64,000 nt of DNA, taken from Escherichia coli (GTDB lineage Bacteria; Pseudomonadota; Gammaproteobacteria; Enterobacterales; Enterobacteriaceae). The stretch lies in assembly GCF_041886205.1 (NCBI RefSeq), contig NZ_CP169029.1. One strand, 5' to 3'. The position numbers were made by a program, and so were the translations under genes. The notes beneath the pieces are model-generated. The model was not told the DNA's origin. It saw nothing but the letters and a program-made list of their open reading frames with translations, and made no database searches. Positions 3,233 to 58,710 of the stretch are shown in pieces; position 1 is the stretch's first letter, and each line of letters opens with the position of its first letter.

Positions 3233-3525
3233 GTTGTGTGACCTGTTGTTGATTACATCCGATTTTACCGCGTGGGCATGGATGGGGCAAACTCACTCAA
3301 TTTCTGGTTTAAAATGGATACCTGATCCTGAAAGTTTTCTGCCATCCACGATCCGTATACGCGATAAACCCTCTGATCATCAGAGCCCTCATTTGATACA
3401 CATCACCACGTCGGATGTTGTTACGACCGCAGACGCAACAGTAACGTTTGAATAATTTAATCTTTGTTGATGTTTTTATTCATATTCCGGGCTAGGGAAA
3501 TAATCAGGCGTAATTGTGTCACTGG

Positions 3526-3594
3526 AATAGAGGTTTCTTGTGGCGCATGTGGAAGGAGCGTCTACTTTGTCTAATAGAGATTTCTTATGACGCA
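3526..3594. repeat. imperfect 22-bp direct repeat pair in the fliE-yedK junction
   Basis: AATAGAGGTTTCTTGTGGCGCA (3526-3547) and AATAGAGATTTCTTATGACGCA (3573-3594), 19/22 identical, all three differences G/A. Confidence 0.5.
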
Positions 3595-10484: not shown

Positions 10485-11807
10485 ATGGCACAAGTCATTA
10501 ATACCAACAGCCTCTCGCTGATCACTCAGAACAACATCAACAAAAACCAGTCTGCGCTGTCGACTTCTATCGAGCGCCTCTCTTCTGGTCTGCGCATTAA
10601 CAGCGCTAAAGATGACGCTGCGGGCCAGGCGATTGCTAACCGCTTCACTTCTAACATCAAAGGTCTGACTCAGGCCGCACGTAACGCCAACGACGGTATC
10701 TCTCTGGCGCAGACCACTGAAGGCGCACTGTCTGAAATCAACAACAACTTGCAGCGTGTTCGTGAACTGACCGTTCAGGCCACTACCGGTACTAACTCTG
10801 ATTCTGACCTGTCTTCAATCCAGGACGAAATCAAATCCCGTCTCGATGAAATTGACCGCGTATCCGGTCAGACTCAGTTCAACGGCGTGAACGTACTGGC
10901 AAAAGATAACACCATGAAGATTCAGGTTGGTGCGAACGATGGTCAGACTATATCCATCGACCTGCAAAAAATCGACTCTTCTACTCTTGGTTTGAACGGT
11001 TTCTCCGTTTCTAAAAATGCTCTCGAAACTAGCGAAGCGATCACTCAGTTGCCGAACGGTGAGAATGCCCCAATCGCTGTGAAGATGGATGCGTCTGTTC
11101 TGACCGATCTTAACATTACTGATGCTTCTGCTGTTTCGCTGCACAACGTAACTAAAGGTGGTGTCGCAACGTCTACTTATGTTGTTCAGTATGGCGATAA
11201 GAGCTATGCAGCATCTGTTGATGCGGGAGGTACAGTAAAACTGAATAAAGCCGACGTAACATATAACGACGCAGCAAATGGTGTTAAGAATGCCACCCAG
11301 ATTGGTAGTCTGGTTCAGGTTGGTGCTGATGCAAACAATGATGCAGTTGGTTTTGTTACCGTGCAGGGGAAAAACTATGTTGCTAATGACTCATTAGTCA
11401 ATGCTAATGGCGCTGCTGGCGCTGAAGCAACTAGAGTTACAATTGATGGTGATGGTACTAACCAGGCTAAAATTGAACTTAGCCAAAATGGTGATACTGC
11501 TGCAACATCAGAGTTCGCTGGTGCTTCAACCAACGATCCACTGACTCTGCTGGACAAAGCTATCGCATCTGTTGATAAATTCCGTTCTTCTTTGGGGGCG
11601 GTACAGAACCGTCTGAGCTCCGCTGTAACCAACCTGAACAACACCACCACCAACCTGTCTGAAGCGCAGTCCCGTATTCAGGACGCCGACTATGCGACCG
11701 AAGTGTCCAACATGTCGAAAGCGCAGATTATCCAGCAGGCAGGTAACTCCGTGCTGTCCAAAGCTAACCAGGTACCGCAGCAGGTTCTGTCTCTGCTGCA
11801 GGGTTAA
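10485..11807 (+). CDS. fliC: flagellin FliC (non-K-12 allele, 440 aa)
   Basis: Conserved flagellin N terminus (MAQVINTNSLSLITQNNINKNQSALS...) and C terminus (...QVPQQVLSLLQG) with a divergent central domain. Confidence 0.95.
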   Translation: MAQVINTNSLSLITQNNINKNQSALSTSIERLSSGLRINSAKDDAAGQAIANRFTSNIKGLTQAARNANDGISLAQTTEGALSEINNNLQRVRELTVQATTGTNSDSDLSSIQDEIKSRLDEIDRVSGQTQFNGVNVLAKDNTMKIQVGANDGQTISIDLQKIDSSTLGLNGFSVSKNALETSEAITQLPNGENAPIAVKMDASVLTDLNITDASAVSLHNVTKGGVATSTYVVQYGDKSYAASVDAGGTVKLNKADVTYNDAANGVKNATQIGSLVQVGADANNDAVGFVTVQGKNYVANDSLVNANGAAGAEATRVTIDGDGTNQAKIELSQNGDTAATSEFAGASTNDPLTLLDKAIASVDKFRSSLGAVQNRLSSAVTNLNNTTTNLSEAQSRIQDADYATEVSNMSKAQIIQQAGNSVLSKANQVPQQVLSLLQG

Positions 11808-11850
11808 TCGTCGTAACCTGATTAACTGAGACTGACGGCAACGCCAAATT

Positions 11851-11950
<100 letters not shown>

Positions 11951-11980
11951 ACATCAAGCGCAATTTGTCAGCAACGTGCT

Positions 11981-12006
11981 CCCCCGCCACCGGCGGGGTT
12001 TTTTCT
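11981..12006 (+). terminator. rho-independent terminator of fliC
   Basis: CCCCGCC-ACC-GGCGGGG hairpin followed by T6. Confidence 0.65.
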
Positions 12007-16854: not shown

Positions 16855-17083
16855 TAAGAAAAAATCAGCCCCGACGATTCGACAGTCGGGGCGGAACGCC
16901 ATTTCAAGCGTGATAAAACTGTTTAACAAATCAGCATAACTCATTAATAACATAAGAGAATGCGATGGCTTGCAAAAGTAATTCATTGTCTGAATAATAT
17001 AAATTATATATAAATCTTATTTATGTGATAGTTTGAATTATCATTATAAATGATACTCACTCTCAGGGGCGTTGCGGTTTACT

Positions 17084-17873: not shown

Positions 17874-18098
17874 TTACTGACGGTAGGCTTGTTTAATTTG
17901 CTTAACCGTTTTGGAAAATACTGCAGCCTGGGTTTCGTCTTCGATCAGCGCAAGCTGTTTTTCCATCTTTAACATCACGCGGCCCGCGTCAGCTTGTCCC
18001 ATCGCCTGCAGCATCAGCGTCAGCATCGCTTTCAGGCAGGAGACTTCATTTGCCAGTTCTTGATTATTCTCGGCAGTAGAAAAATCAGGCGTACTCAT
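17874..18098 (-). CDS. yecF: uncharacterised protein YecF
   Basis: 74-aa ORF; synteny between sdiA and uvrY. Confidence 0.8.
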
Positions 18099-18556
18099 TT
18101 ATTTTCCTCGTCATGTTGCAATGAAAATTTGCGGTGAAAAATGTTAAGGCGGCGGAGTATACCATAAGCTTTGCTAAAAATAGCAGTGGTTGTTTTTTGA
18201 GCGTGCCGTCAACGGTGCTATTAAATGCGTTAATATAATGACCAATAAATATTTTTATCATGAATGTTTTTTGCCCGTATTGTTCGGGTTAATTAATGTT
18301 ACATATTCAGCGGGCTGATTTTCATTTTTGCTGAATAAAGGTAATTTTTGTCACATTTCGTCGCAGGGCTTACTGTGAAACGATCCGGTAAGCCGTTGGT
18401 GACGGGCGTGACCATAACTGTGGACAATCGAATTGACAAAAACGAGAGAAAAATCGAATACCCACCATTTTTAACGTTTCAAAGTTGCAATAAAAACCGC
18501 TAATATACGAATGACTAACTATCAGTAGCGTTATCCCTATTTCTGGAGATATTCCT

Positions 18557-22100: not shown

Positions 22101-22143
22101 TGGGAAAGATAAGAATAAAATCAAAGCAATAAGCAGTGTCGTG

Positions 22144-22168
22144 AAACCACCTTCGGGTGGTTTTTTTG
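22144..22168 (+). terminator. rho-independent terminator of the tRNA operon
   Basis: Hairpin AAACCACC-TTCG-GGTGGTTT followed by a T tract. Confidence 0.65.
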
Positions 22169-25198: not shown

Positions 25199-25368
25199 GA
25201 TAGTGCTCCACAAAGGTTATATTTGTTGCTGTGGCGTCACTATAATTTGTTATTTTATTATTTGCAAAAGGTAAAATATAAACTTCAATTATTAAAAATA
25301 CGAATGGGAATAAAACGCATTACCGCTATTTCTTTAATCAGCGAAGATCCCCTCGCTGATTAAAATAT

Positions 25369-25692
25369 TTAGAGAAAGACAGGGAAGGCGGAATGATGGC
25401 ACTGATATGACAAAGTGAATTCCGTATTCAAACATAAGGAACCCGCAAAAAGGCTACAGTTGCCTACTGGCTGACCAAAGGGGACCGCGTGGGTATAGCC
25501 TTCCTGCTGGCATGCGCGATCGGCGATCCCGCGACTGACATAACGATCGGTATGGGCATGCTGCAAAAAAGCCTGGTCATAAACTAACCGTACAATACCT
25601 GTTGCCGCGTCAACTTTGCTCACATGGGCTTGGCGAGTAACCGTACACCCCGCCAGCGTTATTAATGAAAGAGTCAGAATCAGAAGTCTCAT
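25369..25692 (-). CDS. yecR: lipoprotein YecR
   Basis: 107-aa ORF with lipobox (LITLAGC). Confidence 0.8.
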   Translation of the reverse strand: MRLLILTLSLITLAGCTVTRQAHVSKVDAATGIVRLVYDQAFLQHAHTDRYVSRGIADRACQQEGYTHAVPFGQPVGNCSLFAGSLCLNTEFTLSYQCHHSAFPVFL

Positions 25693-25954
25693 GGTCCAGC
25701 CAGAAGAGTAAGAGAAAGCACTATTTTACGCGTTACAGTGCTGCGACAATGGCCGGAAAAGACGCCTGGCAGGCGCTATTTCTTGCCATCTGTAGGTGTC
25801 AGAAATAGGGGGGCTGTTTTTTGATTATCATTTTCATAACATTAAAGGGGTATTTATGTGATTTGCATCACATAAAGATTGATTTTTGTGATGGTTGTCA
25901 TATTATAAGCGCAAAGACAATAACACCTGTATAACAAATAGTCGGAGTGCCGCG

Positions 25955-26041
25955 ATGAAACTGCGCAAAATCCTGAAAAGTATGTTCAATAACTATTGCA
26001 AGACGTTCAAAGACGTACCGCCAGGCAATATGTTCCGATAA
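25955..26041 (+). CDS. azuC: small protein AzuC (28 aa)
   Basis: ATG at 25955 encodes MKLRKILKSMFNNYCKTFKDVPPGNMFR then TAA; below the 60-aa ORF-track cutoff; correct position between yecR and yecJ. Confidence 0.7.
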   Translation: MKLRKILKSMFNNYCKTFKDVPPGNMFR

Positions 26042-26155
26042 CAAAAAACCTGCTCCGGCAGGTTTTTTTGTGTCCTGATGACGGTGGATGTGACTATCGC
26101 TGAAGATGTGAAGCCGCTACTATAACGGCTTTCAAAATGCTATCAGGAGTTTACG

Positions 26156-26407
26156 ATGTCCCAGCCGCTGAATGCCGATCAGGAACTGGTTTCTGATGTG
26201 GTTGCTTGCCAGTTGGTTATCAAACAAATTCTGGATGTTCTCGATGTAATCGCGCCCGTTGAAGTTCGTGAAAAAATGTCCAGTCAGCTGAAGAATATCG
26301 ACTTTACTAACCATCCCGCCGCCGCAGACCCGGTCACCATGCGGGCAATCCAAAAAGCCATCGCGCTTATTGAACTCAAGTTTACCCCACAGGGTGAATC
26401 CCATTAA
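26156..26407 (+). CDS. yecJ: uncharacterised protein YecJ
   Basis: 83-aa ORF; synteny. Confidence 0.8.
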
Positions 26408-27207: not shown

Positions 27208-27785
27208 CTGCAATGAATTTTAATGATAGTGCTTTTTGTATCTTGTTGATATTAATCAATGAATTTGAATTCATGATGAAGTGATGATTTTATAAAACGT
27301 TTTTTCATTTTTGCGAGATGGCTCTCATTATACGTGTTCTGTTAATTAATGAGCACAGTGATAATTAATGACGAAATGAATGACGTGCATTTTCCACATC
27401 TTTGAGTTGCGGTTATTACACCATTTCAAAAACTCAACGCCAGGTAATGCGGCCTATTGACTGGTTAAAAAGAAGACATCCCGCATGGGTACCAAAGACA
27501 ACAAGGATTTCCAGGCTAATCTTATGGATTAATCTGCTGTGCATTCGACAATTTGTCTGACAAATTGGCTTTCCCTTATGTCTTTTCCCGCTAAATTTAT
27601 GCACGTTCTCACTGTAATTCTGCGATGTGATATTGCTCTCCTATGGAGAATTAATTTCTCGCTAAAACTATGTCAACACAGTCACTTATCTTTTAGTTAA
27701 AAGGTAATGCTTTGTTTTCCGATTAATTTAACGAATGTCATTCGTTTTTGCCCTACACAAAACGACACTAAAGCTGGAGAGAACC

Positions 27786-34161: not shown

Positions 34162-34940
34162 AACCTGTTCCTTATTCTGTGAACTTCAGGTGACATTAAA
34201 GCTTTACTCCTAATGGAGAAACGACGCAATCCCAACTCGGTCAAACAGGTAAATATTAGTCTGATTATTAGTAAAGACAATTAATCAATCACTCCCGGTG
34301 ATCATATAATTTCAAATGTAATTATAAGAAAATAGTGTACTGATTCTCCGCATTAAACAAGTGGTTAATATATGTAAAACATTTCATTAATATTAAGTTG
34401 ATTGTTGCCTTTCTTTGTATTTAATTAGTTTGTTGTGCGGTAAGTGTCTGTTTAAAAATAGCTTATCTGGTATTGCATGAAAGTGATTATTTATAGCAGA
34501 TGATTATTTACGGTGAGTTATTTTGACTGTGCGCAACATCCCATTTCGATTATTCCTGTTTCATTTTTGCTTGCTAGCGTAGCGAAAAACTTTTTAACAG
34601 ATTGAAATACACCCAAAACAAAAGTATGACTTATACATTTATGTTAAGTAATTGAGTGTTTTGTGTGATCTGCATCACACATTATTGAAAATCGCAGCCC
34701 CCCTCCGTTGTATGTGCGTGTAGTGACGAGTACAGTTGCGTCGATTTAGGAAAAATCTTAGATAAGTGTAAAGAACCATTTCTATTTGTAAGGACATATT
34801 AAACCAAAAAGGTGGTTCTGCTTATTGCAGCTTATCGCAACTATTCTAATGCTAATTATTTTTTACCGGGGCTTCCCGGCGACATCACGGGGTGCGGTGA
34901 AACCGCATAAAAATAAAGTTGGTTATTCTGGGTGGGAATA
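34162..34940 (+). promoter_or_regulatory. flhDC upstream regulatory region and 5' leader (class 1 flagellar promoter)
   Basis: 779-bp AT-rich non-coding region before flhD; no IS element present; individual operator sites not resolved here. Confidence 0.6.
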
Positions 34941-35291
34941 ATGCATACCTCCGAGTTGCTGAAACACATTTATGACATCAACTTGTCATATTTACTACTT
35001 GCACAGCGTTTGATTGTTCAGGACAAAGCGTCCGCTATGTTTCGTCTCGGCATAAATGAAGAAATGGCGACAACGTTAGCGGCACTGACTCTTCCGCAAA
35101 TGGTTAAGCTGGCAGAAACCAATCAACTGGTTTGTCACTTCCGTTTTGACAGCCACCAGACGATTACTCAGTTGACGCAAGATTCCCGCGTTGACGATCT
35201 CCAGCAAATTCATACCGGCATCATGCTCTCAACACGCTTGCTGAATGATGTTAATCAGCCTGAAGAAGCGCTGCGCAAGAAAAGGGCCTGA
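34941..35291 (+). CDS. flhD: flagellar master regulator subunit FlhD
   Basis: Start at ATG 34941 ([24 protein letters not shown]...) giving 116 aa; the ORF-track start 9 nt upstream is a GTG extension. Confidence 0.93.
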
Positions 35292-35293
35292 TC

Positions 35294-35872
35294 ATGAGTG
35301 AAAAAAGCATTGTTCAGGAAGCGCGGGATATTCAGCTGGCAATGGAATTGATCACCCTGGGCGCTCGTTTGCAGATGCTGGAAAGCGAAACACAGTTAAG
35401 TCGCGGACGCCTGATAAAACTTTATAAAGAACTGCGCGGAAGCCCACCGCCGAAAGGCATGCTGCCATTCTCAACCGACTGGTTTATGACCTGGGAACAA
35501 AACGTTCATGCTTCGATGTTCTGTAATGCATGGCAGTTTTTACTGAAAACCGGTTTGTGTAATGGCGTCGATGCGGTGATCAAAGCCTACCGTTTATACC
35601 TTGAACAGTGCCCACAAGCAGAAGAAGGACCACTGCTGGCATTAACCCGTGCCTGGACATTGGTGCGGTTTGTTGAAAGTGGATTACTGCAACTTTCCAG
35701 CTGCAACTGCTGCGGCGGCAATTTTATTACCCACGCTCACCAGCCTGTTGGCAGCTTTGCCTGCAGCTTATGTCAACCGCCATCCCGGGCAGTAAAAAGA
35801 CGTAAACTTTCCCAGAATCCTGCCGATATTATCCCACAACTGCTGGATGAACAGAGAGTACAGGCTGTTTAA
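35294..35872 (+). CDS. flhC: flagellar master regulator subunit FlhC
   Basis: 192-aa ORF with C-terminal zinc-binding cysteine cluster. Confidence 0.95.
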
Positions 35873-35898
35873 CTGATACGGTGAGGCGCAACATTCCA

Positions 35899-35930
35899 GC
35901 AGCGGTAACGACGTACCGCTGCTTTTTTTT
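35899..35930 (+). terminator. rho-independent terminator after flhC
   Basis: GCAGCGGTA/TACCGCTGC 9-bp stem followed by T8. Confidence 0.7.
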
Positions 35931-40302: not shown

Positions 40303-40330
40303 TTCTCCCGATTTCCTCAATTGAAATGAA

Positions 40331-40358
40331 CCCGATGATCTGCGCATCGGGTTTTTTA
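40331..40358 (+). terminator. rho-independent terminator after cheW
   Basis: CCCGATG-ATCTGCG-CATCGGG hairpin followed by T6. Confidence 0.7.
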
Positions 40359-40388
40359 TTTCAATTTCGCGGCGGGTGGCATCAGCAA

Positions 40389-40415
40389 TAAAGTTTCCCC
40401 CCTTCTTGCCGATAA
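40389..40415 (+). promoter_or_regulatory. sigma28 (FliA) class 3 promoter of tar-tap-cheRBYZ
   Basis: Exact consensus TAAAGTTT-N11-GCCGATAA. Confidence 0.8.
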
Positions 40416-51188: not shown

Positions 51189-51288
51189 CCGTTATCGTTT
51201 CCCTGGGGCCGGATATTACGCTTCTGGCCTCTTATCCAACAGTGAGAAAACAATGGCATGTCCATTTTCAGAATACATTTAGATTGCA

Positions 51289-51324
51289 ATAAAAAAGCCT
51301 GATCAGGTAACCCTGATCAGGCTT
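51289..51324 (-). terminator. rho-independent terminator downstream of argS
   Basis: AAGCCTGATCAGG-TAAC-CCTGATCAGGCTT hairpin with a T tract on the minus strand. Confidence 0.65.
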
Positions 51325-53863: not shown

Positions 53864-54619
<756 letters not shown>

Positions 54620-55005
54620 TTTTTACCGTTGCATCATGTCGCCCAATATGATGCTTGCTCGTACCAGGCCCCTGCAATTTCAACAGGGGCCTTTTTTTAT
54701 TTCTGAATAGTATAAAAAACGAACGATTGCCGTGATCTGTTGAGCGGGTGACAGTGCGCATAGCGTTGTGCTAAAAATATTTTATATATTCACATTAATT
54801 ATGGGATTTAAATTGCTAAAACTGATAAATATATATTCTAAATAGCAACTGGGTTATTCCTTAGAAATTAAGGATTACATTGTAATAAATCATATTCTTT
54901 TTCGATTATTTCAGGCAGTGTTGTGCCGAATTATGCAAGCGGTTAATTCGTTGTATATTTAATTATACAATGATTTCGGTGTTCTGGAATTAAATATAGG
55001 AATCT

Positions 55006-58560: not shown

Positions 58561-58611
58561 GAAGTGAATAGCGCCCGGAAACGGGCTCTGAGGTTATGCA
58601 AACGTAAAGCT

Positions 58612-58710
58612 GCCTGATGCGCTATGCTTATCAGGCCTACATAGTCCCTGCAATATATTGAATTAGCAAGGTTTTGTAGGCCGGATAAGGCGTTCACGCC
58701 GCATCCGGCA
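58612..58710. repeat. BIME (pair of inverted REP units) between torZ and cmoB
   Basis: GCCTGATGCGCTATGCTTATCAGGCCTACA ... TGTAGGCCGGATAAGGCGTTCACGCCGCATCCGGCA; near-identical to the element at 11851-11950. Confidence 0.8.

Follow-up and report, generated by a model that had tools for sequence, protein, structure and literature searches.

The small protein gene azuC and the dual-function RNA AzuCR in the yecR-yecJ intergenic region of Escherichia coli

Between the genes yecR and yecJ of Escherichia coli there is a reading frame of only 28 codons, too short to appear in an ORF track with a 60-aa threshold. This raises the question of whether such a frame is a true gene and, if so, of what kind of transcript it is a part. 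The window (the whole analysed stretch of DNA, 64,000 nucleotides) had been read before from its letters alone, and this sequence-only reading had named the frame azuC and placed it at 25955-26041. We found the start codon ATG (25955-25957) and the stop codon TAA (26039-26041) exactly there on the + strand, enclosing 28 codons. The proposed flanking genes yecR and yecJ were confirmed by the ORF listing, by the annotation of the homologous stretch and by Pfam, and ftnA and ftnB lie beyond them. The gap between the two flanking genes, given as 262 bp, had to be corrected, as it really measures 463 bp (25693..26155); 262 bp separate the start codon of yecR from the ATG of azuC.

By itself, an ORF as short as this says little. 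Using 2000 dinucleotide-preserving shuffles of the 463-bp gap, we obtained an ORF with an ATG start and 28 codons or more in 93.5 % of the shuffles and a same-size ORF with a Shine-Dalgarno-like motif in 13.8 %. The real gap contains many further ORFs of at least 10 codons. An ORF as long as azuC, even with a Shine-Dalgarno sequence, is statistically not unusual for this gap. Because the length alone is at chance level, the case for azuC must come from comparison, and the reality of the gene rests on conservation, the family match and the literature, not on the existence of the ORF.

The protein was identical to AZUC_ECOLI ('stress response protein AzuC') in an exact-sequence look-up. This exact sequence is found on at least 1000 contigs, and the 90 % cluster holds only 28-aa variants with a single substitution. 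The NCBIfam equivalog model NF033642 (stress_AzuC) was matched over its whole length (model positions 1-26 of 26) with 75.9 bits against a cut-off of 30 (E = 1.3e-21), and Pfam contains no model for AzuC. AZUC_ECOLI, the NF033642 match and the RefSeq annotation all agree with the name azuC chosen by the sequence-only reading, which was right about the identity of the gene and missed its embedding in the dual-function sRNA AzuCR. Of 5426 complete E. coli genomes, 5419 contained the yecR-yecJ intergenic region with at least 95 % identity, and the RefSeq label under it is 'azuC: stress response protein AzuC'. The other seven genomes gave no match to the region, and two of the 5435 intergenic-region matches were on records labelled as plasmid.

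In K-12 MG1655, the CDS azuC (b4663, 1987873..1987959) overlaps the ncRNA azuR (b4434, 1987843..1988001). The window aligns with the K-12 intergenic region collinearly and without gaps, with 4 substitutions in 463 bp and none in the CDS, and the position is orthologous, the order yecR - azuC - yecJ matching the RefSeq and K-12 annotations. In comparison with K-12 AzuC/AzuCR (b4663/b4434; Raina et al. 2022, PMC8915982), the protein is identical and the RNA is identical in 158 of 159 nt. The two loci have the neighbours yecR, yecJ, ftnA and ftnB in common and are alike in promoter, CRP boxes, FnrS site, Shine-Dalgarno sequence and terminator. Position 25940 in the 5′ UTR is A here and G in K-12, and position 25866 in the spacer of CRP box 1 is C here and T in K-12; neither substitution affects a defined motif base. 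The locus is almost certainly the 28-aa small-protein gene azuC embedded in the dual-function RNA AzuCR of about 160 nt, formerly IsrB/IS092. It is an already known gene, annotated and experimentally characterised, with a mechanism published in 2022. The coordinates of the features are summarised in the table.

Table. Positions of azuC, of AzuCR and its signals, and of other small genes and RNAs in the window
Feature	Position	Strand	Description and basis
azuC CDS	25955..26041	+	28 codons and TAA; encodes MKLRKILKSMFNNYCKTFKDVPPGNMFR; direct sequence reading
AzuCR (IsrB / IS092 / azuR, b4434) transcript	25913..26071	+	159 nt; K-12 annotation transfer
AzuCR transcription start site (TSS)	25913	+	K-12 transfer
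AzuCR 3′ end	26071	+	K-12 transfer
Sigma-70 promoter	25879..25906	+	-35 TTGATT 25879-25884, 16-nt spacer, -10 TATTAT 25901-25906; consensus scan
CRP box 1	25857..25872	+	TGTGATTTGCATCACA; perfect palindromic half-sites, centred at -48.5; pattern search
CRP box 2	25887..25902	+	TGTGATGGTTGTCATA; 1 mismatch, centred at -18.5; overlaps spacer and -10; conserved; pattern search
Published NarP/PhoP/FNR repressor sites	25838..25875		K-12 coordinates transferred by collinear alignment
FnrS target	25924..25930	+	CACCUGU; 25-31 nt upstream of the ORF; position per PMC8915982
Shine-Dalgarno sequence	25944..25947	+	GGAG, 7 nt before azuC ATG
Candidate AzuR base-pairing region	25993..26044	+	inside the ORF save the last 3 nt, after the stop; windowed duplex computation
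Intrinsic terminator	26043..26069	+	AAAAAACCUGC-UCCG-GCAGGUUUUUUU; direct folding
yecR	25369..25692	-	Pfam YecR; azuC neighbour
yecJ	26156..26407	+	DUF2766; azuC neighbour
yecU	18085..18261	-	58 aa, K-12-annotated; Pfam PF23680 YecU-like, 139 bits
yecV	51258..51302	+	14 aa, K-12-annotated micro-ORF between argS and yecT; MSIFRIHLDCNKKA
Eight other known sRNAs, spans given jointly	54391..54698, 40322..40399, 58633..58675, 35836..35930, 34743..34962, 16859..16995, 11813..12004, 22101..22167	+, -, -, +, -, -, +, + (in the same order)	Rfam or K-12 annotation transfer

For the comparison with relatives we anchored the loci on the neighbour yecJ, because azuC itself as a query would return positives only. 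From 224 yecJ relatives the best 80 were kept, each a species-representative locus of a GTDB genome, with Klebsiella and others outside the sample. Of these 80 loci, 58 had an intact AzuC frame of 27-29 codons on the same strand as yecJ, at a distance of 65-122 nt upstream of it. These loci keep azuC in at least 11 named genera, namely Escherichia (E. coli-like, E. albertii, E. whittamii and one further species), the Citrobacter amalonaticus/sedlakii group, Enterobacter, Lelliottia, Huaxiibacter, Leclercia, Kosakonia, Pseudenterobacter, Pseudescherichia, Silvania and Pseudocitrobacter. The start, the Shine-Dalgarno sequence and the terminator are conserved along with the frame. Among 54 distinct homologous 81-nt azuC coding sequences, the variable columns by codon position were 10/11/26 of 27 and the mean pN/pS was 0.16, and the other two sense frames contained stops in 52 and 41 of the 54 sequences. 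The positive control yecJ gave variable columns of 36/16/80 of 83. The pattern points to protein-coding selection on the azuC frame.

This bears directly on the view that IsrB/IS092 is a non-coding sRNA only and that its 28-codon frame is fortuitous. The RNA was indeed first described as an sRNA (PMC8915982), its base-pairing function is documented (PMC8915982, PMC12612679), and ORFs of azuC length are, as seen above, common in shuffled gaps. A fortuitous frame is at odds with the retention of frame, start codon, Shine-Dalgarno sequence and stop in 58 loci of at least 11 genera and with the low pN/pS, and adjacent conserved non-coding DNA displays flat profiles, indels and stops instead. The sequence-only reading had named a frame disrupted in close relatives, a missing ribosome-binding site or missing expression evidence as grounds for doubt. 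The frame is kept in relatives both close and distant with a coding-type substitution pattern and the absences concern the whole gene, the GGAG ahead of the ATG is conserved, and both an SPA-tagged protein and ribosome profiling have been published (summarised in PMC8915982). The codon-position pattern effectively refutes the purely non-coding view, and we give it hardly any credence.

The extent and strand of the coding sequence were questioned by the mechanical ORF listing, in which the 28-codon frame is the 3′ part of a single 48-aa ORF started by TTG (25895..26041). For this longer ORF to be the true product, translation would have to begin at TTG 25895, which lies upstream of the TSS and is preceded by no Shine-Dalgarno sequence. 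Moreover, in many genera the extension is broken by in-frame stops 1-10 codons ahead of the ATG, indels affect 37 of 53 homologues, and over the whole length the profile flattens to 25/23/37, so that the chance of a 48-aa product is negligible. The listing also contains an antisense 48-aa ORF (26044..25898, -), which is free of stops in 53 of the 54 homologous sequences. It is open because the sense frame has no TTA, CTA or TCA codons. Its first codon position varies most (37/24/26), which is a mirror of the sense-strand wobble and no coding signature, and promoter, Shine-Dalgarno sequence and terminator are all oriented to serve the + strand. That the antisense ORF is the coding feature here is practically out of the question, and the 28-codon sense frame is the one we consider further.

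The ends of the frame differ slightly among genera. AzuC has 28 aa in Escherichia, where codon 28 is CGA or CGC (Arg) and is followed by the stop (26036..26041 in the window), and also in one C. amalonaticus. In nearly all other genera the protein has 27 aa, with TGA at codon 28 where Escherichia has CGA-TAA. The two Pseudocitrobacter loci encode 29 aa, and their true ATG lies two codons upstream. GGAG or GGGG precedes the start at equal spacing in all 58 azuC loci, when the Pseudocitrobacter pair is measured from this true ATG.

The 5′ UTR is the target of another small RNA, FnrS, which pairs with it and blocks AzuC translation under anaerobiosis (PMC8915982). The CACCTG motif was found in 41 of the 58 orthologous 5′ UTRs and is contained in an 18-nt conserved block, ATAACACCTGCATAACAA, in the alignment of 29 sequences from 11 genera. 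The 5′ end of FnrS, which we take to be GCAGGUG, is complementary to the CACCUGU of the azuC 5′ UTR. Seven Enterobacter/Lelliottia loci (L022, L035, L036, L037, L042, L045 and L046) start AzuC with GTG, and all seven lack the CACCUG motif and have AAAGTTGTATAAC in its place. E. albertii (L008) likewise lacks the motif, yet it starts with ATG. Post-transcriptional control may be altered in these lineages.

No azuC was found upstream of yecJ in the remaining 22 of the 80 loci. These belong to Salmonella enterica subsp. arizonae and diarizonae, C. koseri, 11 members of the C. freundii complex, 7 Buttiauxella and one Escherichia sp. (MOD1-EC7003). Searching with a DNA profile of the whole azuC unit, we recovered from them only weak terminator-like remnants, in Salmonella and in Escherichia sp. 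MOD1-EC7003. In the latter (L004, 2707..2972), a deletion of about 680 bp took yecR together with the azuC promoter and ORF, leaving ftnA directly next to a degenerate azuC terminator copy upstream of yecJ. In the 22 loci it is the whole gene that is absent, and not a frame that is broken. Since azuC is absent upstream of yecJ in these lineages, it is dispensable in some relatives.

The AzuCR transcript was placed on the window by the gap-free alignment with K-12 (blastn 99.4 % over 159 nt), its TSS being K-12 position 1988001 (PMC8915982). The RefSeq RNA has 159 nt and its ORF begins at +43. In the primary paper the length is 164 nt and the CDS runs from +40 to +126, a 3-nt offset; Northern blots show the 164-nt RNA as a discrete species (PMC8915982). 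The -10 element TATTAT ends 7 nt before the TSS, and the promoter is nearly invariant in 29 representatives of 11 named genera. In the same alignment, the GTGA-N6-TCACA of CRP box 1 is kept across genera. This box overlaps the published FNR and PhoP sites; the repressor sites of isrB/azuCR in K-12 are 1988039-58 for FNR, 1988046-63 for PhoP and 1988060-76 for NarP (PMC12266141). CRP represses azuCR transcription without glucose (PMC8915982), and from this published repression and from its own position we infer that CRP box 2 is repressive. Judged by its sequence, the locus seems to contain every element of a short transcript, namely promoter, CRP sites, TSS and terminator. Two CRP boxes in the window are perfect, box 1 of azuCR and TGTGATCTGCATCACA at 34664..34679 (+) in the flhDC upstream region.

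The terminator hairpin has a dG of -18 kcal/mol (z = -5.15) and none of 200 shuffles folded equally well. A simple terminator scanner overlooked it, since the U-run is taken up by the A/U extension of the stem, and direct folding found it. In all 19 aligned genera representatives the stem is unchanged, with no covariation. The consensus fold of AzuCR comprised the terminator and two small helices, all invariant, and nothing else, with no covariation either way, and Rfam 15 yielded no family for AzuCR at gathering or permissive thresholds. With neither a family nor covariation, the assignment of the RNA to AzuCR rests on synteny and on identity to K-12. Matches to STnc370 (33 bits against 54), rsmX and RNAI were below threshold and driven by the terminator; STnc370 was pursued in Salmonella and other loci, where nothing was found, and we treated it as a chance match. 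The ACCUGY of the 5′ UTR (25924..25930) is a near-repeat of the ACCUGC in the 5′ arm of the terminator (26048..26053). Pairing of this motif with the 3′ arm GCAGGU, a sequence similar to the FnrS 5′ end, is possible in principle, but the consensus fold contained no such alternative.

A short ORF with an intrinsic terminator behind it looks like an attenuator, and azuC could be read as mainly a leader peptide or attenuator for yecJ, located 65-122 nt downstream on the same strand. The linkage of azuC and yecJ is tight and its orientation is conserved in 58 of 58 positive loci, yecR being sometimes kilobases away, and the possible pairing of ACCUGY with the terminator 3′ arm would suit such a role. 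Against it, yecJ does without azuC in 22 of the 80 loci, no conserved antiterminator structure was predicted, and one clade lost the ACCUG motif without any change in the terminator. The discrete AzuCR species on Northern blots (PMC8915982) is also difficult to reconcile with an attenuator. The sequence TACTAT(A/G), downstream of the terminator and about 35 nt upstream of yecJ (26113..26125 in the window), is found at the homologous positions of L004, L009, L013, L031 and L066, also where azuC is absent, which is consistent with a separate yecJ promoter, and it is probably the -10 element of that promoter. Altogether we consider an attenuator role very unlikely and keep to azuC as a small-protein gene within AzuCR. 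It is conceivable that this unvarying linkage points to a functional connection of AzuC with YecJ, an uncharacterised protein.

Regarding the function of the protein, AzuC is an amphipathic peptide associated with the membrane; it co-purifies with GlpD and raises glycerol-3-phosphate dehydrogenase activity (PMC8915982). The peptide encoded in the window has a net charge of +6, and the helical hydrophobic moment of residues 2-19 is 0.60, a value reached by 35 of 5000 shuffles. In silico, these residues are predicted to form a strongly amphipathic N-terminal helix, the basis on which AzuC associates with the membrane. Translation of the peptide, GlpD binding and stimulation of the dehydrogenase are expected to hold here by identity to K-12.

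The second function, AzuR, represses cadA by pairing near its ribosome-binding site and galE by pairing within its CDS. The pairing uses sequence inside the azuC ORF, so that translation and pairing interfere with each other (both PMC8915982, PMC12612679). We computed duplexes in 28-nt windows, as whole-length prediction gave meaningless end-to-end duplexes. AzuCR nt 81-114 were predicted to pair with cadA -16..+19 (dG -24.2/-21.9 kcal/mol) and nt 105-132 with galE +125..+147 (dG -21.9 kcal/mol), and competing AzuCR duplexes of similar energy were present in the same scan. The two predicted duplexes fit the literature in that they lie within the azuC CDS, near the cadA ribosome-binding site and inside the galE CDS. 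The pairing coordinates in the table, derived from this model, should be taken as those of a candidate region.

Within this proposed pairing segment, the third codon positions vary freely between genera. Several azuC-bearing genera are classically lysine-decarboxylase negative and would therefore lack the cadA target. It is conceivable, although we would sooner bet against it, that the AzuC protein is an ancient conserved function and AzuR pairing a recent addition restricted to Escherichia.

Taken together, the locus would work as follows. The sigma-70 promoter and the two CRP boxes would drive a short transcript from 25913, in which the GGAG located 7 nt ahead of the start codon at 25955 would direct translation of the basic peptide AzuC, and the conserved hairpin and U-run would end AzuCR near 26070. 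AzuC, as an amphipathic membrane protein, would stimulate GlpD. The same RNA, acting as AzuR, would repress cadA and galE by pairing within the ORF, and translation and pairing would compete. Transcription would be repressed by CRP when glucose is absent and by FNR, NarP and PhoP, and FnrS on the 5′ UTR would block AzuC translation under anaerobiosis.

Similar arrangements are known from RNAs of unrelated sequence. SgrS/SgrT of E. coli is, like AzuCR, a short Hfq-associated RNA that combines a small regulatory protein with mRNA pairing in carbon metabolism (PMC8915982). The coding and pairing regions are separate in SgrS, whereas they overlap and compete in AzuCR (PMC8915982, PMC12612679), and the two sequences are unrelated. 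Spot 42/SpfP of E. coli and VcdRP of Vibrio cholerae are, like AzuCR, CRP-repressed dual-function RNAs, again with unrelated sequences. The protein partners also differ, CRP for SpfP, citrate synthase for VcdP and GlpD for AzuC.

The sequence-only reading had presented azuC as the sole gene below 60 aa and had suspected that other gaps may hide similar small ORFs. The first statement did not hold, as yecU and yecV are also intact in the window. yecU, itself below the 60-aa ORF track, differs from K-12 in 4 aa and overlaps the yecF start by 14 nt, and yecV carries G10C relative to K-12. In the four gaps around azuC covered by the comparative loci, several other short frames gave tblastn matches, those of the promoter region in 48-49 of 74 loci, and by the codon-position test all of them had flat profiles, indels and stops. 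The tblastn-positive frames appear to be conserved regulatory DNA, namely the azuCR promoter and the regions upstream of ftnA and araF. Since tblastn alone cannot separate coding ORFs from conserved regulatory DNA, the codon-position test is needed. The DNA upstream of araF (27434..27700) and of ftnA (25223..25363) is conserved across genera with the same flat profiles, indels and stops, and both stretches are probably regulatory DNA and not small genes.

Several other features of the window were recorded. Of the other known sRNAs, MicL, C0465 and ES036 were detected by Rfam, and MotR, AsflhD, SdsN, FliX and 3′ETS-leuZ by transfer of the K-12 annotation. A FliX-like segment occurs again at 58611..58710 (86 % identity), overlapping the ES036 match. 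Compared with K-12 MG1655, the window is without the IS1H insertion upstream of flhD (34636..34643), lacks most of the yedL-yedN segment (about 3492..3565) and has a divergent central region of fliC (10990..11528), in which the flanks are 87-90 % identical and the middle is unaligned. These differences mark the source as an E. coli other than K-12.

We claim no new biology for azuC/AzuCR, which is present in RefSeq and EcoCyc-derived records. The locus serves as a positive control, since a 28-aa gene invisible to a 60-aa ORF track was recognised from the letters alone and comparative codon analysis separated it cleanly from the background. The modest additions are the correction that yecU and yecV also lie in the window, the yecJ-anchored map of azuC presence and absence in Enterobacteriaceae with its constant azuC-yecJ linkage, the finding that in one Enterobacter/Lelliottia clade a GTG start coincides with a missing FnrS site, and the absence of constraint on synonymous sites of the proposed sRNA seed region across genera. 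This free synonymous variation hints that the sRNA role is perhaps lineage-specific and the peptide older.
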